Source of the DNA: an uncultured Clostridia bacterium
GTDB lineage: Bacteria; Bacillota; Clostridia; Oscillospirales; CAG-272
DNA: 64,000 nt
Assembly (NCBI GenBank): GCA_937875545.1
Contig: CALLYE010000073.1
Span: 12,237 to 76,236 of the forward strand
Reading direction: 5' to 3'
The position numbers and the translations under genes are program-made. Position 1 is the stretch's first letter; every line of letters starts with the position of its first letter. The notes beneath the pieces are model-generated. The model saw only the letters and a list, made by a program, of their open reading frames with translations. It had not been told where the DNA came from and did no database searches. Positions 834 through 63,019 of this stretch are shown one piece after another.

Positions 834-849
834 ACAAGCTGAAGAATAC

Positions 850-877
850 GCGCGGGGGTGTTTAAACACCCCCGCGC
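850..877. terminator. perfect 28-nt palindromic hairpin between convergent spoVAE and murI
   Basis: GCGCGGGGGTGTTT/AAACACCCCCGCGC is an exact reverse complement. It is preceded by GAATACGCG, as in the 3-prime element after pnp. No clean U-tract on either side. Confidence 0.5.
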
Positions 878-892
878 ACATATATTGTCCCG

Positions 893-7367: not shown

Positions 7368-8212
7368 AGTGGGCAAAATTTATAGTTATCGCCGCGCTCA
7401 CCGTTTCGCTCATGTCGTGCGGTGTTCTCACAAATAAATATTCCGAACAAACCGGCGGACAGGATTATGAAACAAATTCATCCGAAAAAAGCAAACCCGC
7501 CAAAAAAACCGAGCCTGAAACTGCTCCCGTAACCGTATACAACCCCTATTTCGAGGTAGTGGCCCGCGAAACAAAAGACGGCATCCTTTATCTGCCCGCC
7601 GACGACGGGTTCGGCAATCCCACCGGCGACATTATCGTAATCGGATATAACGGCGTTTCGCAGAACGTGAAAATCCCAGCCATCATCGACGGCGGCAATG
7701 TGACGAGCATCGGCGAGGGCGCTTTTTATGGCAAGGGCAACATCTCGACCATCACTATCTCCGATTCGGTAACAGAAATCGGGCGCGCGGCGTTTTCTAC
7801 CTGCCCGAACCTGACCGCCGTTACGTTTGGACGCGGTATTACCGCGCTGCCCCCGGAGTTATTGCGTGGCTGCAAGGTGCTTTCTTCCGTAAAATTGCCC
7901 GAAACGCTTACACTGATCGGTGATTTTGCTTTCGAAGGCTGTTTGCGGCTTGAGAGCCTGTACATCCCCGCGTCGGTGACGGAAATCGGGTTCGACGCTT
8001 TCATGGGCTGCGAGTGGCTGACGCTGGATGTTTCTGATAACGAACACGCAGCGTCATACGCTGAAGAAAACAAAATCAACGCCGATCCGTTCTTCACCTA
8101 CTCCGCGCAGCGAGGGAGGATTTACGCCGTCGTTGCCGCCGGTGTGCTGATCGCCGCGGCGATGCTTGTTATTCCGGTATTTCTGCGTCGCAAGAAAGAG
8201 GGTGCGCGATGA
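7364..8212 (+). CDS. BspA-type leucine-rich-repeat surface protein (lipobox plus C-terminal TM anchor)
   Basis: Signal peptide with lipobox LMSC. Five roughly 23-aa repeats of the xxVTxIGxxAFxxCxxLxxVxL type. C-terminal hydrophobic helix followed by RRKKEGAR. The ATG overlaps the upstream stop (ATGA). Confidence 0.8.
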   Translation: MKWAKFIVIAALTVSLMSCGVLTNKYSEQTGGQDYETNSSEKSKPAKKTEPETAPVTVYNPYFEVVARETKDGILYLPADDGFGNPTGDIIVIGYNGVSQNVKIPAIIDGGNVTSIGEGAFYGKGNISTITISDSVTEIGRAAFSTCPNLTAVTFGRGITALPPELLRGCKVLSSVKLPETLTLIGDFAFEGCLRLESLYIPASVTEIGFDAFMGCEWLTLDVSDNEHAASYAEENKINADPFFTYSAQRGRIYAVVAAGVLIAAAMLVIPVFLRRKKEGAR

Positions 8213-8697
8213 TCGCGGTGTTTCAGCGCGTCACTTCCGCTTCGGTAGCCGTGGACGGCGAGCTCGTCGGACAATGCGGCGCGGGCTGTCTGATATTGCT
8301 GGGCGTCGCTCGCGGCGACACCGAACTTGACGCCGACAGGCTTGCCGCAAAGCTGGCGAAACTGCGCGTTTTTGCCGACAATAACGGGAAAATGAACCGC
8401 TCTGTGACCGATATTGGCGGCTGTGCGCTGGTCGTCCCAAACTTTACGCTGCTTGCCGACTACACGCACGGCAACCGACCGGATTATCTGGGCGCCGCGC
8501 CGCCTGATGAGGCGAACGCACTTTACGAATATTTTTGCCGCGCGCTCGAGGAGCAGAGTGTGCCCGTATCGCGCGGTATATTCGGCGCGGATATGCGCGT
8601 ATCACTCGTCAACGACGGGCCGGTCACGCTTGTTTTAGACAGCAGGTCGCTGGGAACGGGGATACACCCCGCCAATATATACCAAGTTAATAATTAA
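8209..8697 (+). CDS. dtd: D-aminoacyl-tRNA deacylase
   Basis: MIAVFQRVTSASVAVDGELVGQCGAGCLILLGVARGD and ...NDGPVTLVLDS are typical of Dtd. The ATG overlaps the LRR gene stop (ATGA). Confidence 0.9.
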   Translation: MIAVFQRVTSASVAVDGELVGQCGAGCLILLGVARGDTELDADRLAAKLAKLRVFADNNGKMNRSVTDIGGCALVVPNFTLLADYTHGNRPDYLGAAPPDEANALYEYFCRALEEQSVPVSRGIFGADMRVSLVNDGPVTLVLDSRSLGTGIHPANIYQVNN

Positions 8698-8737: not shown

Positions 8738-8782
8738 GGGGTGCGGGGGATGTCATATCCCCCGCGCGTAACCCCGTTTCTT
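8738..8782 (+). terminator. putative terminator hairpin after dtd
   Basis: Outer stem GGGGT/ACCCC and inner 9-bp stem GCGGGGGAT/ATCCCCCGC, followed by GTTTCTT. Confidence 0.45.
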
Positions 8783-8804: not shown

Positions 8805-10349
8805 ATGAAATTGATTACAGATGGAAATGTCAACATATACTATGCGCAGACGCTTTGCCTGCTCTTTTTTCCCGCCGCGAAATTTTCCGAATCGGAGCCG
8901 GTGACGGGCAGTACGCCCGTGGTGACGATGACCTCGACCGAAGTTGAGAGCGGTGTGCGCGCGACGGCAAAGATAAAAATCGAAAGCGGCGAATCATACG
9001 CCGAGGTATTCAAGCAATACGGCGATAATTCGCACGGCGAAACGTCGCGTGAGGACGCGGTCGGGACGCCTTCCGACATGCTGACGGGGCGCGGCAAACG
9101 CCGCACAGAGAATATCGCGTTGGGCGCCGCTATGCTCGAGGCGGGTCGGAAACTGTTTGGCAGCACGCCCGCCTGGGGTCTGCTCACCGGCGTGCGTCCG
9201 GCGAAAATCGCAGCTGAGTTTATCGCCGAGGGGCTTGACGACAAGTCAGCTGCGCGCGAGCTGTCGTCAGATTATATGATTAACCCCAAAAAAGCCGCGC
9301 TGCTGACCGCCGTCGCACGCAACGAAGATAATATCAGAAAAACGCTCGGCGACGGGTTGTGCAGCGTTTATATTTCCATTCCCTTCTGCCCGACGCGCTG
9401 CGCTTATTGTTCGTTTGTGTCATATTCCACAAAGCGGCTGCTGTCGATGATCCCGGATTATCTTGAACGCTTATACCATGACATTGACGATACCTTTTCG
9501 CTTATCCGCGAGCTGGGACTGCGCGTCGCAACGGTTTACATCGGCGGCGGTACGCCGACCATACTTGATGCCCGCCAGCTCGACACGCTGCTCGAGCGTA
9601 TCGGACGATATGTACAGCCCGAGGTGCTGCGCGAATTCACGCTCGAGGCCGGCCGCCCCGACACTGTCACCGCCGAAAAGATCGCGGTCGCGGCAGAGCG
9701 CGGGGTCACGCGCGTCAGCGTAAACCCGCAGACGCTCAACGACGCGGTGCTTGAAGGCATAGGGCGCAAGCATACCGCCGAGGATTTTTACCGCGCGTTC
9801 GAGCTTGTGCGGAACGGCGGGATTAAAACAATCAACTGCGACCTGATCGCGGGTCTGCCCTCCGAGCGGTTCTCCGGCTATTCGCGCAGTGTAGACGCGG
9901 TGTTGAAATTAAAGCCCGAGAACGTTACTTTCCACACCTTTTGCGTTAAAAAATCGGCGGAGCTGCTGCGCGACGGCACAGAGCTGTATCTGCGAAACGG
10001 CGGCGACACTTCCAAATGCGTCGACTATTCGCAGCTCAAAGCTAAAAACGCGGGTTATTCGCCTTATTACATTTACAGGCAGAAGAACACCGTAGGCAAT
10101 CTCGAAAACGTCGGATTTTCGCTGCGCGGGTACGAGGGGATATATAACATCATTATGATGGAAGAGCTGCACAGCGTATTCGCCGTCGGTGCAGGCGCGG
10201 TCACAAAACTCGTTCCGCGCGGCGAAGGGCGCATCGAACGGGTCGCGGTGCCGAAATATCCGTATGAATATATGAACATGGGCGTAAATTCCGACGCCAT
10301 GAACGCGGTTTACGCTAAAATACGCAATTTTTACAATAATATTTATTAA
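8805..10349 (+). CDS. hemZ: HemZ-type oxygen-independent coproporphyrinogen oxidase-like radical SAM protein
   Basis: Radical SAM cluster motif IPFCPTRCAYCSF, followed by YIGGGTPT and HemN-like C-terminal regions. The roughly 500-aa size with an N-terminal extension is typical of HemZ. Confidence 0.8.
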   Translation: MKLITDGNVNIYYAQTLCLLFFPAAKFSESEPVTGSTPVVTMTSTEVESGVRATAKIKIESGESYAEVFKQYGDNSHGETSREDAVGTPSDMLTGRGKRRTENIALGAAMLEAGRKLFGSTPAWGLLTGVRPAKIAAEFIAEGLDDKSAARELSSDYMINPKKAALLTAVARNEDNIRKTLGDGLCSVYISIPFCPTRCAYCSFVSYSTKRLLSMIPDYLERLYHDIDDTFSLIRELGLRVATVYIGGGTPTILDARQLDTLLERIGRYVQPEVLREFTLEAGRPDTVTAEKIAVAAERGVTRVSVNPQTLNDAVLEGIGRKHTAEDFYRAFELVRNGGIKTINCDLIAGLPSERFSGYSRSVDAVLKLKPENVTFHTFCVKKSAELLRDGTELYLRNGGDTSKCVDYSQLKAKNAGYSPYYIYRQKNTVGNLENVGFSLRGYEGIYNIIMMEELHSVFAVGAGAVTKLVPRGEGRIERVAVPKYPYEYMNMGVNSDAMNAVYAKIRNFYNNIY

Positions 10350-28216: not shown

Positions 28217-28290
28217 TGCGGGGGGTACGAGGGTACGGGGGTACGGTCGCTTTTGAAAAAGCTCCGCAAAACTTTTTAATAATAAAAATG
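28217..28290 (+). repeat. stop-proximal G-rich heptad + hairpin element (copy after the GT2 gene)
   Basis: It starts directly after the TAA: TGCGGGGGG TACGAGG GTACGGGG GTACGG, then hairpin TCGCTTTT-G-AAAAGC, then TCCGCAAAACTTTTTAATAATAAAA. Confidence 0.7.
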
Positions 28291-28350: not shown

Positions 28351-28385
28351 GGGGTCTGGTGGTGCTATGGCGCCCACCAGACCCC
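28351..28385. terminator. bidirectional terminator-like hairpin
   Basis: GGGGTCTGGTGG (28351-28362) pairs with CCACCAGACCCC (28374-28385), an exact 12-bp stem, with T-rich flanks in both orientations. It sits between convergent genes. Confidence 0.6.
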
Positions 28386-28468
28386 TTTAATAAAAAGTTT
28401 TGCGGAGCTTTTCAATTCCCAGCTATGCTGAGAATTGAAAAGCGACCGTACCTTCGTTCTTTTTCACT
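28386..28468 (-). repeat. stop-proximal element, copy after the solute-binding protein gene (with a nested hairpin insertion)
   Basis: After the stop, the minus strand reads GAACGAAGGTACGGTCGCTTTT-CAATTCTCAGCATAGCTGGGAATTG-AAAAGCTCCGCAAAACTTTTTATTAAA. This equals the GT2-side copy with a 25-nt palindromic insertion replacing the single loop G. Confidence 0.65.
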
Positions 28469-46925: not shown

Positions 46926-49139
46926 ATGTTTGAAAATTACCGCGAATTTCATTATACGCTGGCAGGACGCCCGCTGACAATCGAAACAGGTAAAATGGCG
47001 GGGCTCGCAAACGGCGCCTGCCTTGTCCGTTACGGAGATACCGCGATCCTTGCCACCGCCACCGCCAGCGCCAAGCCGCGCGACGGCATAGATTATTTGC
47101 CGCTGTCCGTCGATTTTGATGAGCGTCAATATGCCGCGGGAAAAATCCCCGGCGGATTTTTCCGCCGCGAGGGTCGTCCGTCCGAAAAAGCGATACTCAC
47201 CTCCCGCGTTATCGACCGCCCGACCCGCCCGCTGTTCCCCAAGGATCTGCGCAACGACATCGCGCTCAACCTGCTGGTTATGTCCGTCGAAAACGACAAC
47301 TCACCCGAAATTGCCGCTATGATCGGTTCGTCGATCGCGCTTACCATCTCCGATATCCCGTGGAACGGGCCGATTGCGGGCGTTTTCGTCGGTATGGTGG
47401 ACGGCAAGTTTATTATCAACCCCACCGTCGCACAGCGTGAAGCGAGCATACTCGAGCTGACCGTCGCGGGCACCGCTGAAAAAGTCGTCATGATCGAAGC
47501 CGGCGCGAAAGAAGTGTCTGACAGCGACATGTACAATGCAATAATGTTCGCCCACGAAGAAATAAAGAAAATTTGCGCCTTTATTTCTTCGATACAGGCT
47601 GAGGTCGGCAAACCCAAGTTTGCATACACCGCCGTCGACGTCGATCCTGATATATATGAGAAAGTCAAGGCTTTCTGCGTCGAAGAAGTCAAATCGGCGC
47701 TTGATACCGACGATAAAAATGTCCGCGACGCCGCGATGAATATCGTCACCGACAAAGTTTACGCCGAATTTGACGAGGAATATCCCGACAGCCACCCGAT
47801 GATGAACGAGGTGCTGTACAAGCTGCAAAAATCGGTCGTACGCGAATGGCTGCTCCAGGGCAAGCGCGTTGACGGGCGCAGGCTCGACGAGATCCGCCCG
47901 CTTGCGGCGGAGGTCGGTCTGCTCCCCCGTGTGCACGGCAGCGGTATGTTCACGCGCGGTCAGACACAGGTCATCACCACCGCGACGCTCGGTTCGCTTG
48001 CAGACGCGCAGGAGCTGGACGGTATTGACGAAGACAACACCAAGCGCTATATGCACCATTACAACATGCCGCCGTTCTCGACCGGCGAAGCAAAACCCAC
48101 CCGCAGCCCCGGACGCCGCGAAGTCGGTCATGGCGCGCTGTCAGAACGCTCGCTTGTTCCCGTTCTGCCCTCGCTTGACGAATTCCCCTACGCTATCCGC
48201 TGCGTATCGGAGGTAATATCCTCCAACGGCTCGACCTCCCAGGCATCGGTCTGCGGTTCGACGCTGGCGCTGATGGACGCGGGTGTACCGATTAAATCAC
48301 CTGTGGCGGGTATCTCCTGCGGCCTTATCACAGAAGGCGACCGCTGGATGACGATGATTGATATCCAGGGCGTCGAGGACTTTTTCGGCGATATGGACTT
48401 CAAAGTCGCCGGCACGCATAAAGGCATCACCTCTATACAAATGGATCTAAAGATCGACGGTCTGACGCCCGAGATCATTAAAAACGCGCTCGAGACGACC
48501 CATAAAGGGCGCGATTATATCATCGACGAGATACTCCTCAAAGCGATACCCGCGCCGCGTCCCGAGGTGTCGCGCTACGCTCCCAAGATGATCTCTCTGA
48601 AGATCGACCCCGAGAAGATCGGCGACGTTATCGGGCCGAAGGGTAAAATTATTCAGAAGATACAGGCTGAAACCGGCGCGAAGATTGACATCGAGGACGA
48701 CGGCTCCGTATTCATCGCGGCAGTCAATCCCGAGTCGGGTATGATTGCCAAACGCATGATCGAGAACATCGTGTTCGAGCCGGAAGTCGGTACGATTTAC
48801 ACCGGTAAAGTGACGCGCGTGATACCCATCGGCGCGTTCGTGGAGTTCGCGCCCGGCAAAGAAGGCATGGTGCATATCTCCAAGCTTGAAAATTACCGCG
48901 TGGAAAAAGTTGAGGACGTGTGCAACGTGGGCGACACGATCACCGTCAAGTTCCTCGGTATGGACGAAAAAGGTCGTATGAACCTCAGCCGCAAAGACGC
49001 TATGCCGAGAACGGAAGGCGCCGGCGAAGGCGCTTCGCACGAATTTAAGCCCTCCGCACCGCGTGAGGAAAAATCATCCGATACAACTTTCCGCCCCCGC
49101 CGTCCCTTCCGCAGACCGCGCGACGGCGGCGACGAGTAA
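46926..49139 (+). CDS. pnp: polyribonucleotide nucleotidyltransferase (PNPase)
   Basis: Two RNase PH domains, a KH domain (IGPKGKIIQKIQAETGAKIDI) and an S1 domain (GKVTRVIPIGAFVEF), plus a basic/acidic C-terminal tail. Start set at ATG 46926 (MFENYREFHY...). Confidence 0.93.
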   Translation: MFENYREFHYTLAGRPLTIETGKMAGLANGACLVRYGDTAILATATASAKPRDGIDYLPLSVDFDERQYAAGKIPGGFFRREGRPSEKAILTSRVIDRPTRPLFPKDLRNDIALNLLVMSVENDNSPEIAAMIGSSIALTISDIPWNGPIAGVFVGMVDGKFIINPTVAQREASILELTVAGTAEKVVMIEAGAKEVSDSDMYNAIMFAHEEIKKICAFISSIQAEVGKPKFAYTAVDVDPDIYEKVKAFCVEEVKSALDTDDKNVRDAAMNIVTDKVYAEFDEEYPDSHPMMNEVLYKLQKSVVREWLLQGKRVDGRRLDEIRPLAAEVGLLPRVHGSGMFTRGQTQVITTATLGSLADAQELDGIDEDNTKRYMHHYNMPPFSTGEAKPTRSPGRREVGHGALSERSLVPVLPSLDEFPYAIRCVSEVISSNGSTSQASVCGSTLALMDAGVPIKSPVAGISCGLITEGDRWMTMIDIQGVEDFFGDMDFKVAGTHKGITSIQMDLKIDGLTPEIIKNALETTHKGRDYIIDEILLKAIPAPRPEVSRYAPKMISLKIDPEKIGDVIGPKGKIIQKIQAETGAKIDIEDDGSVFIAAVNPESGMIAKRMIENIVFEPEVGTIYTGKVTRVIPIGAFVEFAPGKEGMVHISKLENYRVEKVEDVCNVGDTITVKFLGMDEKGRMNLSRKDAMPRTEGAGEGASHEFKPSAPREEKSSDTTFRPRRPFRRPRDGGDE

Positions 49140-49200
49140 AACGGAGATACGGGGATACGGGGACACGAGGAATACGCGTGGGGGGAGAAGCTCCCCCCAC
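49140..49200 (+). repeat. stop-proximal G-rich heptad + hairpin element (copy after pnp)
   Basis: After the TAA: A ACGGAGA TACGGGGA TACGGGGA CACGAGGAA TACGCG, then the hairpin GTGGGGGGA-GAAGC-TCCCCCCAC (49178-49200). Confidence 0.7.
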
Positions 49201-49230
49201 ACCCCGCAGACATAGACTAATATTAAAAAA

Positions 49231-49262
49231 GCATGCGCCAATAACCGGCGTATGCTTTTTTG
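49231..49262 (+). terminator. rho-independent terminator of pnp
   Basis: GCATGCGCC-AATAACC-GGCGTATGC (one mismatch) followed by TTTTTTG. Confidence 0.8.
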
Positions 49263-55008: not shown

Positions 55009-58000
55009 TTATCTGAAATAATCGACGCCCGCTTTGAATATGGGCATAAATTTATTACCGGGTACGTTTTTCGCCACATTATTCCCGCGGCGTTCGCTGT
55101 GACCCATCTTGCCGAATATACGTCCGTCGGGGCTGAATATACCCTCGATCGCTAAATCCGAGCCGTTGGGATTGAAACGCGTCTCCATCGATGGCACGCC
55201 CTCAGAATCTACATATTGCGTCGCGATCTGTCCCCTCTCCGCAAGTTTATCGATCAGTTTCTCCGGTGCGGTGAATCTGCCTTCGCCGTGAGAGATTGGA
55301 ACAGTGTGAAGCTCGTCAACCTCGCAATAGCGTAACCACGGTGATTTCACGCTCGCCACGCGTGTCGTTACCATCATAGACTGATGCCGCCCAATCTTAT
55401 TATAAGTCAGCGTCGGGCTGTCGGGCGACAACACGGGTAAAATTTTACCTTCGGGCAGCAGTCCGCTCTTGACCAGCGCTTGAAACCCGTTGCAAATGCC
55501 GAGGATCAAGCCGCCGTTTTCGTCGAGCAGGCGCGTAACCGCCTCGCATATCGCGGGGCTGCGTAATACCGCGGTGATAAACTTGCCGCTGCCGTCGGGT
55601 TCGTCGCCGCCGGAAAATCCGCCGGGCAGCATTAAAATCTGCGCCCCGTTTATCGCGGCGGAAAGCTCCGCAAGCGAATCCTCCAGCATTGCGGACGTCA
55701 GGTTGCGCAGCACAACCGTCGCCGGCTCGCCGCCGGCTTCGTCGAACACGCGCGCGCTGTCGTATTCGCAGTTTGTGCCCGGGAATACGGGAATAACGAC
55801 CCTCGGACGCGCGAATTTCGCGGGCGGCGTAACGCTGTGATGGGTTACACAGGACAGCGCCGGGGGTTTTATTCCGGCGAGTCTTTCCTCGTCCGCGACC
55901 TTGGTCGGGAATACACGCTCAAGCGGCGCGCTCCAGATGTCCGCAAGCTCGGTGAGAAAAATTTCTTCTTTATTGCAATATATGAAACCGCGGTCTGTGG
56001 TGTGACCGAGCGGAATACCGCGATCAAGCGGTTTTTTTGCCGCGATAATAAACGCGCCCGGACGCTTGCGCGTCAGCTCATCCGCAGTCATAACGCTCGA
56101 AAATTCAAATCCGACCATGTTGCCGAAGCAGCATTTCGCGACCGCTTCCGCGATACCGCTGAAGCCGAGCGCGCAGATACTCTCCGCGCTGCCTTCGTCC
56201 GCAAGTTTGTGTATATAGTCGAACAGCTCCGTAAGCGACTGCGCGTCGGGCAGCATATCGCCTCCGTATTTCGGTTCAAGCAGATATACGCTGCTATTTA
56301 CGCGTTTGAATTCGGGCGTGGTCAGCTTTGACGCGCGGTGGGGCGCGACCGCGAACGACACCAGCGTCGGCGGCACGTCGATACGACCGACATCCTTGCC
56401 CTCGAAAGTGCCGCTCATGCTGTCCTTGCCGCCGATTGCGGCGATGCGCAGTCCGAGCTGCGCGCGATACGCGCCGAGCAGCGCCGACAGCGGCACGCCC
56501 CAGCCCTCCGCATCAGCGCCCATACGTCGGAAATATTCCTGGAACGACAACCTTGCGCTGCGATAATCCGCGCCCGACGCAACCAGCCGCGCCGCCGATT
56601 CCACAACCGCGCAATACGCGCCGTGATAGGGCGATTTTTCCGACAGATACGGGTCGAACCCGAACGCCATGACCGACGCGGTATCGGTTTCGCCATGTTC
56701 AAGCGGCAGCTTCGCCGCCATATACTGCGGCGCGGTGAGCTGTTCGCGACCGCCGAACGGCATGACCGCCGTCGCGCCGCCGATAGACGAGTCGAAACGC
56801 TCGACCAGCCCCTTCTGCGAGCAGACGTTTAAATCCGATAAAACCGAGCGGAAAACTTCCGCCGCCGGCGCTTCGGTTGATTTAATACCGTCGTAAAGTC
56901 CGTTTATATCGATGTGTTGTATAGCCGCGTCAGCGTATTTGGGCGCGCCGTTCGAGTTTAAGAACTCCCGTGTGAGCGACACGACTTGTTTGCCGCGCCA
57001 AATCATGCGCAGGACAGGTTCAGCGGTTACAGCCGCGACAACCGTGGCTTCGAGGTTTTCGCGGTCTGCAAGCTTTATAAATTTATCAACATCATGCGGA
57101 CGCACTACCACCGCCATGCGTTCCTGCGATTCCGAGATTGCCAGCTCGGTGCCGTTCAGCCCCTCGTATTTTTTGGGTACAGCGTCGAGGTTTATTTCCA
57201 GCCCGTCGGCAAGTTCTCCGATTGCCACGGAAACGCCGCCCGCGCCAAAGTCGTTGCAGCGTACAATAAGCCTTGACGCTTCCGGATTGCGGAACAAGCG
57301 CTGGATCTTGCGTTCCTCGGGCGGGTTGCCCTTTTGCACCTCCGCGCCGCACGACTCGAGCGAGCCGGCGTTATGCGCTTTCGAACTGCCCGTTGCGCCG
57401 CCGCAGCCGTCGCGCCCTGTGCGTCCGCCGAGCAATATCACGGCATCACCCGGCTCGGGAGTCAGGCGCACCACGTTTTCCGCGGGTACCGCGCCCACAA
57501 CCGCGCCCAGCTCCATGCGTTTCGCCGCGTAGCGCGGGTGATATATCTCATTTACACACCCGGTCGCCAGCCCGATTTGGTTTCCGTATGACGAATAGCC
57601 CGACGCAGCGCCGACTGTCAGTTTAGACTGGGGCAGTTTGCCGGGTATGGTTTCGGCGACGGAAACGCGCGGGTCGGCAGCTCCGGTAACGCGCATCGCC
57701 TGATAAACATACGCGCGTCCCGACAGCGGGTCGCGTATCGCGCCGCCCAGACAAGTCGCCGCGCCGCCGAACGGCTCAATTTCGGTGGGATGGTTGTGAG
57801 TCTCATTTTTGAACATGAGCAGCCAATCGCGCTCCTCACCGTCGATATCGGCTTTTATCTTTATTGAGCAGGCGTTGATCTCGTCTGATTCGTCGAGGTT
57901 ATCCAGTTCACCCGACGCTTTAAGCAGCTTCGCCGCTATCGTTGCAAGATCCATGAGCGTTACGGGGCGGCGTTTTGCGGAATTTTTGTACAGCTCCGCG

Positions 58001-58749
58001 CGGCGCTCCAAATAATTGCGCAGTGTGGCGTCGATGTATGCGTCCTCCGCTTTTATATCGCCCAGCTCGGTTAAAAACGTGGTGTGGCGGCAGTGATCCG
58101 ACCAATAGGTGTCGATCATGCGCAGTTCTGTCATCGTCGGGTTGCGATGCTCGCCGTTGAAATACTCCTGACAAAACCGCACGTCGGCGGCATCCATCGC
58201 CAGCCTGTATTCGCTTATAATCTCATTCGGATCAGCATTTCGGAAGCCCTCCAGAACGCTGACGTCCTCCGGCGCGTCGTATTTGTCGTCGAGCGTTTCG
58301 GGCAGCGACGACGACGCTTCCCGGCTTTCGACGGGGTTGATGATATAATTTTTAATTTTTTCCCGTTCCTCTGGCGAAATATCACCCGAGAACGCATATA
58401 CACGCGCGGTGCGTACGCGCGGACGCTCGCCGCGCGTCAAAAGCTGGACACACTGCGAACATGAGTCTGCGCGCTGGTCGTATTGACCGGGCAGATATTC
58501 GACTGTGAGTATAAAATCACTGTTATCCGCACTGAAATCATCCGAAATTATGTCAGTCTGAGGTTCAGAGAACACCGTAAACTTTGCCGACTCGAACAAC
58601 TCGGGCGAAATGCCTTCTACATCGTAACGATTTAAAATCCTTGCGTTTTGCAGCCTCGGGATTAACAAATTTTCGCGCAGATCGCGGCATAATGCCGCCG
58701 CCTCCGCGTCAAATCCTTCCCTGCGCTCGACGAAAACCCTTAAAACCAT
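55009..58749 (-). CDS. purL: phosphoribosylformylglycinamidine synthase, single-chain large form
   Basis: 1246 aa with duplicated PurM-like FGAM synthetase domains and a C-terminal glutamine amidotransferase domain (GICNGFQAL..., ...PISHGEGRF). Confidence 0.93.
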   Translation of the reverse strand: MVLRVFVERREGFDAEAAALCRDLRENLLIPRLQNARILNRYDVEGISPELFESAKFTVFSEPQTDIISDDFSADNSDFILTVEYLPGQYDQRADSCSQCVQLLTRGERPRVRTARVYAFSGDISPEEREKIKNYIINPVESREASSSLPETLDDKYDAPEDVSVLEGFRNADPNEIISEYRLAMDAADVRFCQEYFNGEHRNPTMTELRMIDTYWSDHCRHTTFLTELGDIKAEDAYIDATLRNYLERRAELYKNSAKRRPVTLMDLATIAAKLLKASGELDNLDESDEINACSIKIKADIDGEERDWLLMFKNETHNHPTEIEPFGGAATCLGGAIRDPLSGRAYVYQAMRVTGAADPRVSVAETIPGKLPQSKLTVGAASGYSSYGNQIGLATGCVNEIYHPRYAAKRMELGAVVGAVPAENVVRLTPEPGDAVILLGGRTGRDGCGGATGSSKAHNAGSLESCGAEVQKGNPPEERKIQRLFRNPEASRLIVRCNDFGAGGVSVAIGELADGLEINLDAVPKKYEGLNGTELAISESQERMAVVVRPHDVDKFIKLADRENLEATVVAAVTAEPVLRMIWRGKQVVSLTREFLNSNGAPKYADAAIQHIDINGLYDGIKSTEAPAAEVFRSVLSDLNVCSQKGLVERFDSSIGGATAVMPFGGREQLTAPQYMAAKLPLEHGETDTASVMAFGFDPYLSEKSPYHGAYCAVVESAARLVASGADYRSARLSFQEYFRRMGADAEGWGVPLSALLGAYRAQLGLRIAAIGGKDSMSGTFEGKDVGRIDVPPTLVSFAVAPHRASKLTTPEFKRVNSSVYLLEPKYGGDMLPDAQSLTELFDYIHKLADEGSAESICALGFSGIAEAVAKCCFGNMVGFEFSSVMTADELTRKRPGAFIIAAKKPLDRGIPLGHTTDRGFIYCNKEEIFLTELADIWSAPLERVFPTKVADEERLAGIKPPALSCVTHHSVTPPAKFARPRVVIPVFPGTNCEYDSARVFDEAGGEPATVVLRNLTSAMLEDSLAELSAAINGAQILMLPGGFSGGDEPDGSGKFITAVLRSPAICEAVTRLLDENGGLILGICNGFQALVKSGLLPEGKILPVLSPDSPTLTYNKIGRHQSMMVTTRVASVKSPWLRYCEVDELHTVPISHGEGRFTAPEKLIDKLAERGQIATQYVDSEGVPSMETRFNPNGSDLAIEGIFSPDGRIFGKMGHSERRGNNVAKNVPGNKFMPIFKAGVDYFR

Positions 58750-58764
58750 GCGCCGTATCTCCGT

Positions 58765-60036
58765 TTATATTATTTCACAAATTAATATTTCATTTGCCGC
58801 TCGGACAGGCTTGACAAACCGCAGCTCACCGCGTTCCGCGGTGCCGGCCGGTACGGCGACTTCCATGAATTCGCGCGTATGCCCCTTGATCAATCCGCTA
58901 TCGGTCTGCTCGAACAATACCCCGAGAGGCTGCCCGCTGTCTATCGCTTTTTCATGGTGGGCAGTCCGCAGCTCGCGGTCAAGCGCTATCAGCCGCTCCG
59001 AGCGTTCCCGACAGATCGCGGGCGGCAACTGGGGCAGCGCGGCTGCTTCTGTACCAGGTCGGGGCGAATATGTGAACACATGCATGTGGTAAAAATCCGC
59101 GTGTCTCGCGAATTCGAGCGTTTCTATAAAATCCTCGTCGCTCTCGCCCGGGAAGCAGGTCAGAATATCCGCCGAATACTTCACATCCGGTATTACGCCG
59201 CGCAGATAATCGAGGTTATCCGCCGCTTGTTTCGCGTTATAACGCCGCCGCATTGCCGCGAGCACACGGCTCGAACCGCTTTGCAGCGATATGTGGAAAT
59301 GCGGCATCAGCTTTGGCAGCGCAGCGAATTCGTCCGCGATATGACGCGTCAGATATGACGGATCGAGCGAACCGAGCCGTATGCGCTCGATATTGTTAAT
59401 TCCGCTTACGCGCGAGATTAACAAGGGCAGGTCGTCGCCGTATGCGGAGGTTTCAATTCCGGTGAGCGTGACCTCGCGGCAGCCCGTCGCGGCGACGGCG
59501 GCGACATCGGCGGCAACGTCGTCCGCACCACGCAGGCTCACGCCGCCGCGTAGCGACGGAATTATGCAATAAGCGCACCGCCCGTTGCAGCCGTCCTCGA
59601 TTTTTATATATGCGCGCGTGCGCTCGAAGCCGTCTATTTTCATCGGTTCGAGCGGATTATTGATAGATTGTTTCAATGCGCCTTGCACGCCTTCAAGCGC
59701 CTTCGCCGCCGCGTCGAGCTTGTTCCGGCTGCCCGCAACTATATCGCATATCCCGGCAAGCGTGTCAGGCTCAAGCTGCGCGTCGCAGCCTACGGCGGCG
59801 ATTACCGCGCGGGGGTTAATCCGTCGCAGCCTGCGCAGCAGCTTACGCGATTTTACGGCGCTCTCCGCCGTCACCGCGCAGGTGTTGACGATATAAATAT
59901 CGCGCACCGATCCGGGTGCGTCCTCTGTCGACGCGTCGACGCCGCGCGAGCGCAGGAACGCGGCGATCGCTTCGCTTTCATAATGGTTTACGCGGCAGCC
60001 GAGCGTATAAACAGCCGCGGTAGATTGATTACTCAT
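58765..60036 (-). CDS. mtaB: MiaB-like methylthiotransferase, MtaB type
   Basis: UPF0004 N-terminal domain (YTLGCRVNHYESE), radical SAM CNGRCAYC, and a C-terminal TRAM-like region. Confidence 0.85.
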   Translation of the reverse strand: MSNQSTAAVYTLGCRVNHYESEAIAAFLRSRGVDASTEDAPGSVRDIYIVNTCAVTAESAVKSRKLLRRLRRINPRAVIAAVGCDAQLEPDTLAGICDIVAGSRNKLDAAAKALEGVQGALKQSINNPLEPMKIDGFERTRAYIKIEDGCNGRCAYCIIPSLRGGVSLRGADDVAADVAAVAATGCREVTLTGIETSAYGDDLPLLISRVSGINNIERIRLGSLDPSYLTRHIADEFAALPKLMPHFHISLQSGSSRVLAAMRRRYNAKQAADNLDYLRGVIPDVKYSADILTCFPGESDEDFIETLEFARHADFYHMHVFTYSPRPGTEAAALPQLPPAICRERSERLIALDRELRTAHHEKAIDSGQPLGVLFEQTDSGLIKGHTREFMEVAVPAGTAERGELRFVKPVRAANEILICEII

Positions 60037-60046
60037 AACAAGCAGT

Positions 60047-60075
60047 ATTATACCATTATTTTATCGCTGTGTAAA
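60047..60075 (-). promoter_or_regulatory. extended -10 promoter TTTACA-17-(TGg)TATAAT close to the mtaB start
   Basis: On the minus strand, TTTACA (60075-60070) and TGGTATAAT (60055-60047). Only 10 nt (ACTGCTTGTT, no SD) separate the -10 from ATG 60036. Confidence 0.5.
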
Positions 60076-62724: not shown

Positions 62725-62786
62725 CAGTGGACGAGGGGACGAGGGTACGGGGTACGCTGGGGGACTTTTTTCGAAAAGTCCCCCAG
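62725..62786 (+). repeat. stop-proximal G-rich heptad + hairpin element (copy after the radical SAM gene)
   Basis: After the TGA: CAGTGG ACGAGGGG ACGAGGG TACGGGG TACG, then a perfect 13-bp hairpin CTGGGGGACTTTT-TTCG-AAAAGTCCCCCAG (62757-62786), then ACCCCCCAAAAACTTTATGATAATTTTAATAAAA. Confidence 0.7.
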
Positions 62787-62823
62787 ACCCCCCAAAAACT
62801 TTATGATAATTTTAATAAAATAA

Positions 62824-62866: not shown

Positions 62867-62944
62867 CATTGTATATAAAAAGAGGATATAAAACCTGCTC
62901 CGCAATTAACCATCTTTCAATAATTGTGCAATTTATCCTTTGTT

Positions 62945-63019
62945 TGCGGGGTGTGGGGGGAGCGGGGTCAAGCTTGCTTGACCCTCTCCCCACCACGCGT
63001 ACCCCCGTTCCCTGTCCCG
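62945..63019 (-). repeat. stop-proximal G-rich heptad + hairpin element (copy after the malic enzyme gene)
   Basis: After the TAA, the minus strand reads CGGGACAGGGA ACGGGGG TACGCG TGGTGGGGAG AGGGTCAAGC-AA-GCTTGACCC CGCTCCCCCCACACCCCGCAAACA. It is near-identical to the pnp copy apart from a nested hairpin insertion. Confidence 0.65.

Follow-up and report, generated by a model that had tools for sequence, protein, structure and literature searches.

Several families of short intergenic repeats in bacteria are modular. Pneumococcal BOX elements have the structure boxA-(boxB)n-boxC and, like MITEs and the mycobacterial MIRU elements, are non-autonomous, intergenic, transcribed, and built of modules, one of which varies in tandem copy number. 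MIRU elements are co-oriented with the flanking genes, overlap their stop and start codons, and behave as VNTRs. The repeated units measure 45 nt in boxB and 46-101 nt in MIRU elements. The cyanobacterial STRR sequences are short tandemly repeated heptanucleotide repeats that form plain arrays with a period of 7 nt. REPs are found <20 bp from ORF 3' ends. They form dimers between convergent ORFs, heterodimers among them, may provide a gene's stop codon, sit nested in palindromes, and have been assigned to superfamilies with a GTAG or CGTC tag (PMC3733652). A REP located no more than 15 nt from a stop codon causes ribosomes to stall (PMC12306157, citing its reference 17). REPIN/RAYT systems are described as mostly vertically inherited.

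We analyzed a 64-kb stretch of DNA from an uncultured member of the Clostridia, hereafter called the window, in which a composite G-rich element follows the pnp gene. We consider it likely that this element belongs to a dispersed palindromic repeat family of modular build that behaves like REP/BIME (REPIN- or MITE-like) DNA. The family was previously undescribed, yet its behavior is largely as known for such selfish repeats. A preliminary description, made from the sequence alone, had reported the element at several gene ends; that observation is real but overstated, and the interpretation given with it is partly supported.

Anatomy of the repeat in the window

The window carries seven copies of the G-rich-unit and hairpin element (Table 1). 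The six copies first described at gene ends were confirmed by the sequence, and a loose census of the architecture 'G-unit + NACG[CG] + hairpin' exposed the seventh; the census itself was unspecific (39 matches vs ~31 in shuffled sequence). An arm in the window consists of one to four tandem G-rich 8-nt units, followed by a tag, a hairpin, and a C-rich tail. Family-wide, arms comprise 1-7 tandem purine-rich units of 8-9 nt each (ACGRGGNN in this host), a short tag (T/G/A)ACG(C/G) on the 5' side of the hairpin (variants seen are TACGC, TACGG, GACGG, and AACGG), a hairpin of 8-13 bp whose sequence varies by subfamily, and a C-rich or GCAAAAC tail, which is an inverted unit and back-pairs with one G-unit. 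RNA fold z-scores of the window copies ranged from -2.0 to -7.2.

Tandem Repeats Finder (TRF) identified three ACGGGG-type arrays in the window (28221-28246, 49141-49176, and 62729-62749). All three have a period of 8 nt, which replaces the heptad proposed earlier, and all start 0-5 nt past a sense-strand stop. Only the arrays are special, since the single hexamer ACGRGG is not enriched in the window (50 matches vs 52.7 expected). Tandem units are real in some copies, but the two to four units per copy of the preliminary description do not extend to the SBP copy, which has a single unit, or to the reduced spoVAE copy, which has nothing beyond GAAGAA.

Six of the seven copies start 0-13 nt past a co-oriented stop codon, and the GT2/SBP and radical SAM/malic enzyme copies form inverted pairs. 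The seventh copy runs antisense to the plus-strand genes on either side of it; it lies 38 nt beyond the stop of 8209-8697 and ~20 nt ahead of the ATG at 8805. As had been noted, the pnp and malic enzyme copies share TACGCGTGG(T)GGGGAG...CTCCCCCCACACCCCGCA, and a nested palindrome occupies the malic enzyme loop. The nested loop palindromes were considered as separate repeat families and rejected as such, since no further copies of them were found among the fetched sequence data. Between the arms of the GT2/SBP pair lies a GC hairpin that by eye looks terminator-like for both convergent genes; the consensus terminator scan did not call it, as it fails the loop and T-run criteria.

Table 1. Repeat copies and associated features in the 64-kb window (positions count from its first nucleotide).
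Feature	Position	Strand	Description
pnp copy, whole	49140-49209	+	Sequence reading
pnp unit array	49140-49176	+	~4.4 octamer units AACGGAGAT ACGGGGAT ACGGGGAC ACGAGGAAT (TRF period 8; anti-SD pairing); starts 1 nt past TAA stop (49137-49139)
pnp tag, hairpin, and tail	49173-49209	+	MFE -29.9 kcal/mol, z = -4.1
pnp tag	49173-49177	+	TACGC
pnp hairpin	49178-49200	+	GTGGGGGGAG-AAG(C)-CTCCCCCCAC
pnp tail	49201-49209	+	C-rich ACCCCGCAG, pairs with G-unit
pnp terminator, outside repeat	49224-49262	+	Canonical intrinsic terminator, 16-pair stem and T-run, terminator scan
GT2 copy	28217-28277	+	Left arm of inverted pair; units TGCGGGGGG TACGAGGG TACGGGGG; tag TACGG; core hairpin GCTTTT-GA-AAAAGC; tail TCCGCAAAACTTTTT
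Central GC hairpin between GT2/SBP arms	28351-28385	.	GGGGTCTGGTGG...CCACCAGACCCC, by eye
SBP copy	28392-28468	-	Right inverted arm; starts 1 nt past TAA 28471-28469; single unit ACGAAGG; tag TACGG; core as in GT2 copy, with nested 25-nt palindrome in loop; MFE -30.5 kcal/mol, z = -6.0
Radical SAM copy	62725-62802	+	Units GGACGAGG GGACGAGG GTACGGGG; tag TACGC; hairpin CTGGGGGACTTTT/AAAAGTCCCCCAG; tail ACCCCCCAAAAACTTT
Malic enzyme copy	62943-63019	-	Units CGGGACA GGGAA CGGGGG; tag TACGC; pnp-like hairpin with nested palindrome GGGTCAAGC-AAGC-TTGACCC; tail ACACCCCGCAAA; MFE -40.6 kcal/mol, z = -3.3
spoVAE reduced copy	834-880	+	13-nt spacer; tag TACGC (847-851); hairpin GCGCGGGGGTGT/ACACCCCCGCGC; no G-unit array; shared with convergent gene 893-1744; MFE -27.4 kcal/mol, z = -7.2
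Seventh copy	8739-8778	-	ACGGGGT TACGC GCGGGGGAT-ATGAC-ATCCCCCGC ACCCC; fold -27.8 kcal/mol, z = -3.0

Spread, position, and turnover

Metagenomes were searched with a 20-nt core taken from the GT2 and SBP copies. There were at least 120 matches, with at least 132 copies, where ~2 matches are expected by chance. A 32-nt core was identical in Clostridia MAGs and in Acidocella-like Alphaproteobacteria, with different 5' unit arrays and 3' modules. On gut contigs it is joined to ACGGGG arrays and to a ~190-nt module that is absent from the window copies; RNAalifold found no covarying pairs in this module of the gut copies, and one stem covaries by eye. On other contigs the same core is joined to AAGTAAGC units and to an inverted partner arm, forming palindromic composites of ~110-150 bp. 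One such AAGTAAGC-type contig (L152) is Acidocella-like, with a glutamate-cysteine ligase 75-80% identical to Acidocella sequences. The identity of the core in Clostridia and in these high-GC Alphaproteobacteria points to horizontal spread.

Arms occur singly or as inverted pairs with a spacer hairpin between them, and they have recombined with further modules. The inverted ends of two-arm composites measure ~40 bp, and these composites often span the whole gap between convergent genes; gene ends abut both sides in 25 of 45. Unit sequence differs across lineages (ACGGGG, TTAGGG, and GGAAGTAA), and some metagenomic copies have 5-7 G-units. A scan of a genome collection with the pattern ACGRGGNNACGRGGNNACGRGG gave, among the matches listed, mostly unrelated high-GC, cyanobacterial, and acidobacterial octamer arrays. 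The relevant match was an unrelated Eubacteriales MAG of 40% GC (L111), which has ~5 copies in 8 kb, including the same core ACGGTCGCTTTTGAAAAA(A)GCTCCGCAAAACTTTT.

Copies accumulate directly 3' of native stop codons, ahead of the real terminator. A co-oriented stop lies ≤60 nt upstream in 56 of 78 core-seeded copies, and the mirrored orientation was found in 10 of 78 (binomial p = 7e-9). The start at the stop codon and the co-orientation first described therefore stand as a strong bias and not as a rule: the copy antisense to both of its neighbors contradicts 'always co-oriented', ~70% of the family follows a co-oriented stop, and some copies are antisense or sit beside divergent gene starts. 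We rejected the possibility that G-type elements truncate ORFs and supply their stop. The C-termini of the radical SAM protein and the malic enzyme are identical with or without the element, which therefore leaves the native protein ends intact and lies beyond the stop. The AAGTAAGC type does supply a stop, with TAA strongly enriched (40 of 50 adjacent stops). The preliminary description also proposed that the element is transcribed as 3' UTR, with a separate terminator further downstream. This is consistent with the sequence at pnp, where the terminator scan did call the canonical terminator, and by eye at the two convergent pairs.

Orthologous gene ends gain and lose the element. The radical SAM end is filled in the window, empty in L244, and filled in L245 with other units and another hairpin. 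The malic enzyme end is filled in the window, filled in L244 with a different hairpin, and without the element or with a remnant only in L245. The pnp end is filled in the window, L253, and L254 and empty in L257, whose pnp stop is followed by a terminator that L256 and L258 share. The orthologous pnp hairpins of L253 and L254 differ by paired changes, which fall at positions 3, 9, and 10 of the stem. The unit number also shifts: at one locus, where the upstream gene is almost the same (2 mismatches over ~380 nt), the array differs by 19 nt, and at a second locus it differs by 8 nt. These steps of about one unit between strains are consistent with slippage.

We searched for a transposase; in REPIN systems this is RAYT, a single-copy Y1/HUH transposase flanked by the repeats. 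No IS200/RAYT-like ORF was found by phmmer among the 3355 ORFs of the fetched loci and the window, which represent small parts of each genome, with an approximate IS200 TnpA query. All-against-all clustering of ORFs revealed no protein family recurring beside copies in the fetched loci. The top ORF clusters consisted of ORFs reading through the repeat itself. No parent IS for the two-arm composites was found in the fetched loci, and no target-site duplication or exact insertion boundary was recognizable, the flanks of filled and empty orthologous sites being too diverged to align. A stop codon repeated at the copy edges (TGA...TGA or TAA...TAA), as a target-site duplication of the stop would leave, is suggestive in some cases, but the triplet at the 3' edge is inconsistent between copies. 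As evidence against mobility, the negative transposase search is weak.

Comparison with described repeats

The REP/BIME option of the preliminary description holds up as a classification, given the dispersed multiple copies, inverted dimers, mosaic modules, presence or absence at orthologous sites, and proximity to ORF 3' ends. Like REPs, BIMEs, and REPINs, the arms consist of a short GC hairpin that carries a conserved, unpaired tag on one end as well as a short tail. They are dispersed in many copies, which stand alone or pair up into inverted homo- or heterodimers. REP palindromes have stems of 5-13 bp and many extragenic copies; here, the stems measure 8-13 bp, in copies counted above for the window, the metagenomes, and L111. 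REPs frequently form inverted dimers with spacers of 20-100 bp, which may carry small stem-loops, and an inverted partner arm was present within 200 nt of 44 of the 78 core-seeded copies. Further likenesses are the closeness to ORF 3' ends (<20 bp), most of all where two ORFs converge, the termini that can supply a stop (the AAGTAAGC type), and the nesting in, or hosting of, other palindromes.

Several features set the family apart. The terminal tag is (T/G/A)ACG(C/G) and not GTAG or CGTC, and a variable tandem array of 8-9-nt purine-rich units is fused on the tag side, which is not a described REP feature. The hosts are Clostridia, outside the coverage of the 2013 survey (PMC3733652). An identical core crosses phyla, unlike the mostly vertical inheritance described for REPIN/RAYT systems, and the approximate query detected no RAYT in the fetched loci. 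REPs do not typically show an orientation bias relative to the gene, and the mobile-repeat reading offers no mechanism for it. As in those E. coli REPs that lie at most 15 nt from a stop codon, a structured repeat follows the stop directly, in the transcript and ahead of the terminator (PMC12306157, citing its reference 17). Here, however, the inner hairpin starts 25-45 nt past the stop with the G-array between, and only the weaker outer helix of G-unit and C-tail is close to it. For the E. coli repeats, translational down-regulation by ribosome stalling was reported.

The likeness to MITE, BOX, and MIRU elements lies in the modular, intergenic structure with one module variable in tandem number. 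The units here are only 8-9 nt long, however, no target-site duplication or parent IS was recognized, and there is no sequence similarity. STRR sequences also place short G-rich tandem units in intergenic DNA but lack a conserved module of tag, hairpin, and tail, and they repeat every 7 nt rather than every 8 nt as here. Among the matches listed in the genome scan, (GACGGGGN)n arrays were many in cyanobacteria and other phyla.

The preliminary description had not recognized the element, and the searches agree. Rfam gave no match at the gathering threshold in the window and 11 related loci; at E ≤ 1, in two regions, the best sub-threshold matches were FsrA (28 bits vs 80) and Thr_leader (25.6 bits vs 55). 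A literature search for the core string returned no papers, and no description of the element emerged when keywords for MITEs at Firmicutes stop codons were used.

Proposed mobility and alternative explanations

As mobile repeats, the elements would spread as non-autonomous DNA through a putative transposase. Insertion preference, purifying selection, or both would keep copies at ORF 3' ends with the G-rich strand in the mRNA, and arms at gene ends would then be transcribed within the 3' UTR. Effects on host genes would be a by-product, as for E. coli REPs; the repeat might hold back 3' exonucleases or form a structure close to the ribosome as it terminates. A function of this kind at the RNA level is putative.

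An alternative is that the host has selected the element as a cis-acting RNA module in the 3' UTR. Its SD-like array would hold post-termination ribosomes or 30S subunits, or bind a protein, and array and GC hairpin would jointly control translation termination or the stability of the mRNA 3' end; the likeness of copies would then reflect selection and gene conversion rather than mobility. The strong sense-strand and stop-proximal bias fits such a module, as does the position upstream of a separate terminator wherever one is visible. Anti-SD pairing is ~10 times background in four of the seven window copies (4-8 sites of ≤-5 kcal/mol per 10 nt vs ~0.5), so the SD-like strings noted earlier are present there; they are absent from the SBP and spoVAE copies, and any G-rich tract would show them. 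The pnp 3' end keeps the element in three species with paired changes in the stem, an observation that speaks against mobile DNA and that a selected RNA structure would explain as well. The unrelated G-octamer arrays of other phyla show a strand bias of 7:1 after stops likewise. We nevertheless regard this module as unlikely, given the identical 32-nt core in Clostridia and Alphaproteobacteria, the antisense copies and those beside divergent gene starts, the gain and loss at orthologous ends of housekeeping genes, the unstable unit number, and the units that are not conserved across lineages. A role in transcription termination, with the GC hairpin acting as an extra upstream hairpin in a cluster or terminating convergent genes in both directions, would suit copies that sit between stops and terminators, often between convergent genes, and the many two-arm composites that are the sole structure between two convergent stops; hairpin clusters have been proposed to induce intrinsic termination (PMC8355165). 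We judge it quite improbable: in an intrinsic terminator a GC-rich hairpin is followed directly by a T-run, whereas the arms continue into the tails ACCCCGCAG or TCCGCAAAAC, the scan that called the separate pnp terminator called none of them, and one window copy is antisense in a 5' region.

Formation of a G-quadruplex, in RNA or in the non-template DNA strand, from the G-runs of the array is very improbable, and the potential for it across the window copies is weak and inconsistent. The preliminary description counted three to five G-runs per copy, and the radical SAM copy indeed fits the canonical pattern of four runs of G≥3 with loops of 1-7 nt. It is the only one of the seven copies to do so, and only when the G-run in its hairpin arm is counted; the malic enzyme copy fits with loops of up to 12 nt. 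G4Hunter-type scores reach 1.6-2.3 at the copies, and 5-7 G-units occur in some metagenomic copies. Against this, the pnp and GT2 copies have only three runs of G≥3, the fourth run in qualifying copies is the 5' arm of a stable, competing hairpin, relatives with AAGTAAGC units and an identical core have no G-runs, and the unit number falls to one (SBP) or zero (spoVAE). That G-rich, low-complexity sequence gathers at gene ends by chance, as the unenriched hexamer and the unspecific loose census would allow, has next to no probability left. This explanation is refuted by the stop-adjacent arrays (three of three), the near-identical copies within and between genomes (L111 and the metagenomes), and the orientation bias of 56 vs 10, and the fold z-scores down to -7 also argue against it.

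A broader version of the mobile-repeat reading, which we rate as doubtful, would make the arm a strand-specific mobile module that crosses phyla and is placed in the first nucleotides after the stop, perhaps by an ssDNA/HUH-type mechanism reading the NACG tag of every unit. Once transcribed, its SD-like purine arrays and hairpin would be a portable 3'-end module that tethers post-termination ribosomes or blocks exonucleases, and the sense-strand G-octamer arrays after stops in cyanobacteria, Acidobacteriota, and Heliobacteria might follow the same logic.

The ordinary REP-like reading matters in that the start at the stop codon, the co-orientation with the gene, and the position ahead of the terminator are mostly documented REP-type behavior. 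What is new is the architecture, with slippage-prone tandem G-rich octamers fused to a tagged hairpin; the host range, with uncultured Clostridia that include human-gut contigs, where REP-like families are poorly described; and the AT-rich 32-nt core identical across phyla. Such repeats mark assembly or rearrangement junctions in metagenomes and can mislead the prediction of 3'-UTR motifs and terminators. If a transposase is found, the family would offer a tractable case for how repeats land exactly after stop codons. A search for a phage or plasmid vehicle gave two weak core-like matches (a small plasmid of E. hirae and one Microviridae record) and one IMG/VR match, which we treat as a lead only.

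Copies and anatomy in the window

The preliminary description placed the same composite element at six or more gene ends. Reading these ends bore this out for all six: five genes carry composite elements directly 3' of their stop codons, and a reduced copy follows spoVAE. A gene-blind search of the window for a G-unit followed by NACG[CG] and a hairpin was unspecific (39 matches versus ~31 in shuffles) but nonetheless revealed a real seventh copy that the earlier list lacked, ACGGGGT TACGC GCGGGGGAT-ATGAC-ATCCCCCGC ACCCC, with a predicted fold of -27.8 kcal/mol (z = -3.0). It lies 38 nt past the stop of one plus-strand gene (8209-8697) and ~20 nt upstream of the ATG of another (8805-10349), and, being on the minus strand, is antisense to both. 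A co-oriented stop is thus found upstream of six of the seven window copies, not of all.

Features of the element, in the window and in loci (L-numbers) fetched from elsewhere
Feature	Position	Strand	Basis or remark
Composite element, pnp end	49140-49209	+	coordinates read
Composite element, GT2 gene end	28217-28277	+	coordinates read
Composite element, SBP gene end	28468-28392	minus	coordinates read
Composite element, radical SAM gene end	62725-62802	+	coordinates read
Composite element, malic enzyme gene end	63019-62943	minus	coordinates read
Reduced copy, 3' of spoVAE	834-880	+	coordinates read
Seventh copy	8739-8778	minus	gene-blind search
Separate canonical terminator of pnp	49224-49262	+	terminator scan
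Three period-8 arrays	28221-28246, 49141-49176, 62729-62749		Tandem Repeats Finder
Radical SAM-end arm of relatives	L245:8458-8540, L246:8384-8466		telomere-repeat-like units replace ACGGGG
~190-nt module	L163, L216, L148, L172 and others, e.g. L216:508-731:-		GGATATAGTTTGTGCAAGTCC...GATCGTTCGCGAGCGGCT-stem-ATCCGCCTTCTACGGGGAG...TGCGGGATATAGTTT
Core-like match	L250:2054-2081		E. hirae small plasmid NZ_CP122308.1
Core-like match	L251:1085-1114		Microviridae MG945251.1

The copies share a plan of one to four ACGRGGNN units, a TACGC or TACGG tag, an 8-13 bp hairpin and a C-rich tail. By Tandem Repeats Finder the window arrays have a period of 8, not the 7 implied by the earlier term "heptad", and all three period-8 arrays start 0-5 nt past a sense-strand stop. 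The hexamer ACGRGG alone is not enriched in the window (50 matches versus 52.7 expected), so what stands out is the arrays and where they sit. Fold energies of the window copies as RNA lie between -18 and -41 kcal/mol (z-scores between -2.0 and -7.2). In the predicted folds, the tail (CCCCG, CCCCC or CTCCGC) and one G-unit make up an outer helix that encloses the inner hairpin; since several repeated units could serve as that partner, alternative pairing registers would be available.

Array length differs by 19 nt at one locus, where the upstream gene has 2 mismatches in ~380 nt, and by 8 nt at another. Such unit-number differences indicate that the arrays behave as slippage-prone microsatellites. 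At the first locus (L170 versus L172), where upstream gene and element are common to both contigs, similarity is wholly lost 3' of the element; the repeat there marks a junction that stems from rearrangement or from metagenome assembly.

In the malic enzyme copy (62965-62984, GGGTCAAGCAAGCTTGACCC) and the SBP copy (28413-28437, CAATTCTCAGCATAGCTGGGAATTG), nested palindromes occupy the hairpin loops, with no further copies of these palindromes among the sequences collected in this analysis. On the minus strand at 58764-58747, after the stop of gene 58765-60060, the window reads TAA ACGGAGATACGG CGC ATG. This 12-mer matches the first units past the pnp stop and here forms the ribosome-binding region of gene 55009-58749, which hints that the G-units may resemble, or derive from, sequence of the ribosome-binding-site type.

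The family beyond the window

The window matches MAG GCA_002397345.1 as well as a contig from a fermentation metagenome, and homologues of its proteins carry the labels Eubacteriales, Clostridiales or Saccharofermentanales. Among the matches listed from a scan of the genome collection with three generic units, most were unrelated G-octamer arrays. Hosts of generic (ACGRGGNN)n arrays (among L004-L123, e.g., L021, L025, L078, L101, L116 and L120) included cyanobacteria, Acidobacteriota, Heliobacteriaceae and other phyla, and some occurred as inverted arrays forming long hairpins. For arrays outside long ORFs, a small sample (n = 24), the G-rich strand had a long ORF ending <=25 nt before the array in 7 cases versus 1 mirrored. 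The same scan found ~5 copies in 8 kb of an Eubacteriales MAG with 40% GC (L111). One has ACGGTCGCTTTTGAAAAA(A)GCTCCGCAAAACTTTT, the core common to the GT2 and SBP copies, and others fall into a second subfamily, ACGCGCGGCTTTTTT...AAAAAAGCCTGGCAAAAAAC; in one inverted pair, one of the two arms lacks a co-oriented gene end upstream.

The 20-mer AAAAGCTCCGCAAAACTTTT, used as the metagenome seed, had at least 132 copies in metagenomes against ~2 matches expected by chance. Among the matches listed, the 32-nt core GGTCGCTTTTGAAAAAGCTCCGCAAAACTTTT was nearly invariant in differing settings. Human-gut and similar contigs carry an ACGRGG array (2-7 units), the core and then a conserved ~190-nt module without an Rfam match, the whole unit sometimes in tandem. 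One stem of this module covaries by eye (CCC/GGG, CAC/GTG, GAC/GTC) and holds nested palindromes. High-GC contigs instead have purine-rich units (GGAAGTAAGC, AAGCAAGC) ahead of the core and, behind it, a short hairpin at the centre and then an inverted partner arm, which makes a palindromic composite of ~110-150 bp. The glutamate-cysteine ligase on one such contig is 75-80% identical to Acidocella proteins; thus, an identical AT-rich core is common to Alphaproteobacteria and Clostridia, and judged by composition it looks foreign to the ~63% GC Acidocella-like background. Composites of the AAGTAAGC type, on L152 and further Ga0116226 contigs, come from these Acidocella-like Alphaproteobacteria of ~63% GC. 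Rfam had no match to the element in the window or related loci, and a literature search for the core string found no paper containing it.

Position and inheritance at gene ends

Position statistics were computed on the 78 copies with enough flank among the matches listed, the 20-mer seed holding no upstream-context information. In 56/78 copies versus 10 mirrored (binomial p = 7e-9), a long co-oriented ORF ended <=60 nt before the hairpin, a strong bias short of the "always" first proposed. An inverted partner arm lay within 200 nt in 44/78. Genes ended on both sides of 25 of the 45 two-arm composites, on one side of 16 and on neither side of 4. Because the arms are inverted copies, the purine-rich strand is the sense strand for a gene arriving from either side, which accounts for much of the impression of constant co-orientation at the window's two convergent pairs. 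In the AAGYAAGC type, TAA makes up 40/50 of the neighbouring stops versus 26% background (p = 1e-13); 4-12 nt separate stop and hairpin, the stop falling within the element's own (G)TAAG units. The G type, to which the window copies belong, has a co-oriented stop upstream in 20/29 copies, with no TAA bias (11/20 versus 36%; p = 0.14) and 10-59 nt, occupied by the array, between stop and hairpin.

The window carries the element at the radical SAM end, L244 (89% protein identity) lacks it there, and L245 and L246 (84%) have a version built of TTAGGG/TTAAGGG units with a TACGAC tag and another hairpin. At the malic enzyme end, L244 has a copy with a different hairpin (TAGGGGCAT/ATGCCCCTA) and L245 lacks the element or retains a mere remnant. 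Both proteins keep the same C-terminal residues whether or not the element is there; the element therefore lies 3' of the native stop. The pnp end carries it in the window, L253 (90%) and L254 (87%), with 4, 2-3 and 1-2 units, respectively; the stems (GTGGGGGGAG/CTCCCCCCAC, GTGGGGGGCT/AGCCCCCCCAC and GTTGGGGGCC/GGCCCCCAAC) show paired changes at three positions. In L257 (84%) the site is empty, and a terminator common to L256 and L258 comes after the stop. This distribution indicates gain in one subclade, then inheritance.

Probable mobile repeat, less likely RNA function

The occurrence of repeat plus hairpin at gene ends is real and far from chance. REPs combine a hairpin, an unpaired tag (GTAG or CGTC) and a short tail; they occur as singletons and inverted dimers with spacers of 20-100 bp, lie mainly between convergent and unidirectional ORFs, often provide the stop codon through their GTAG termini and can be nested in other palindromes (Di Nocera et al., PMC3733652). 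The present family has all of these positional and organisational features, in agreement with the REP/BIME-like option raised earlier. It differs in its NACG(C/G) tag, its fused tandem-unit array, its Clostridia hosts, which that survey does not mention, and a core found across phyla. The element is probably a REP/BIME-like mobile palindromic repeat, whose stop-proximal, mostly sense placement follows known REP habits; its architecture (tag and fused array) is new, and the kind of repeat is already known.

A dedicated RNA function, to which the persistence at pnp with paired stem changes and the strand bias of copies point, appears unlikely. The proposed G-quadruplex is a weak candidate by sequence pattern: the radical SAM copy alone offers four runs of G>=3 at loop lengths of 1-7 nt, one of these runs coming from the hairpin arm; the malic enzyme copy qualifies only once loops may reach 12 nt, pnp and GT2 each contain three runs, and relatives with AAGTAAGC units lack them. 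The reported Shine-Dalgarno-like strings are dense in the pnp, GT2, radical SAM and malic enzyme arrays (4-8 predicted anti-SD sites at <= -5 kcal/mol per 10 nt versus 0.4-0.6 in controls) but absent from the SBP and spoVAE copies, and such pairing would be expected of any G-rich tract. A passage of the RepRanger paper (PMC12306157) restates that REPs <=15 nt from a stop stall ribosomes and reduce translation; any stabilising or translation-related effect of the present element is putative. No T-run follows the arm hairpins, and the terminator scan called no arm in the window; it did call the separate terminator expected downstream of the pnp element, and the element would presumably be transcribed into the 3' UTR.

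No transposase was found in the small parts of each genome fetched, using an approximate query sequence. The viral collection gave a single match to the core. Core-like GCTTTTGAAAAAGC plus (T)(C)GGCAAAACTT matched weakly (E about 2e-3 each) in an E. hirae plasmid and a Microviridae sequence. The plasmid match lies ~45 nt from a GC hairpin with the loop GTCGTAGTA, which we take to be the reverse complement of the pMV158-type nick site; this proximity may hint at HUH endonuclease recognition or may be chance.
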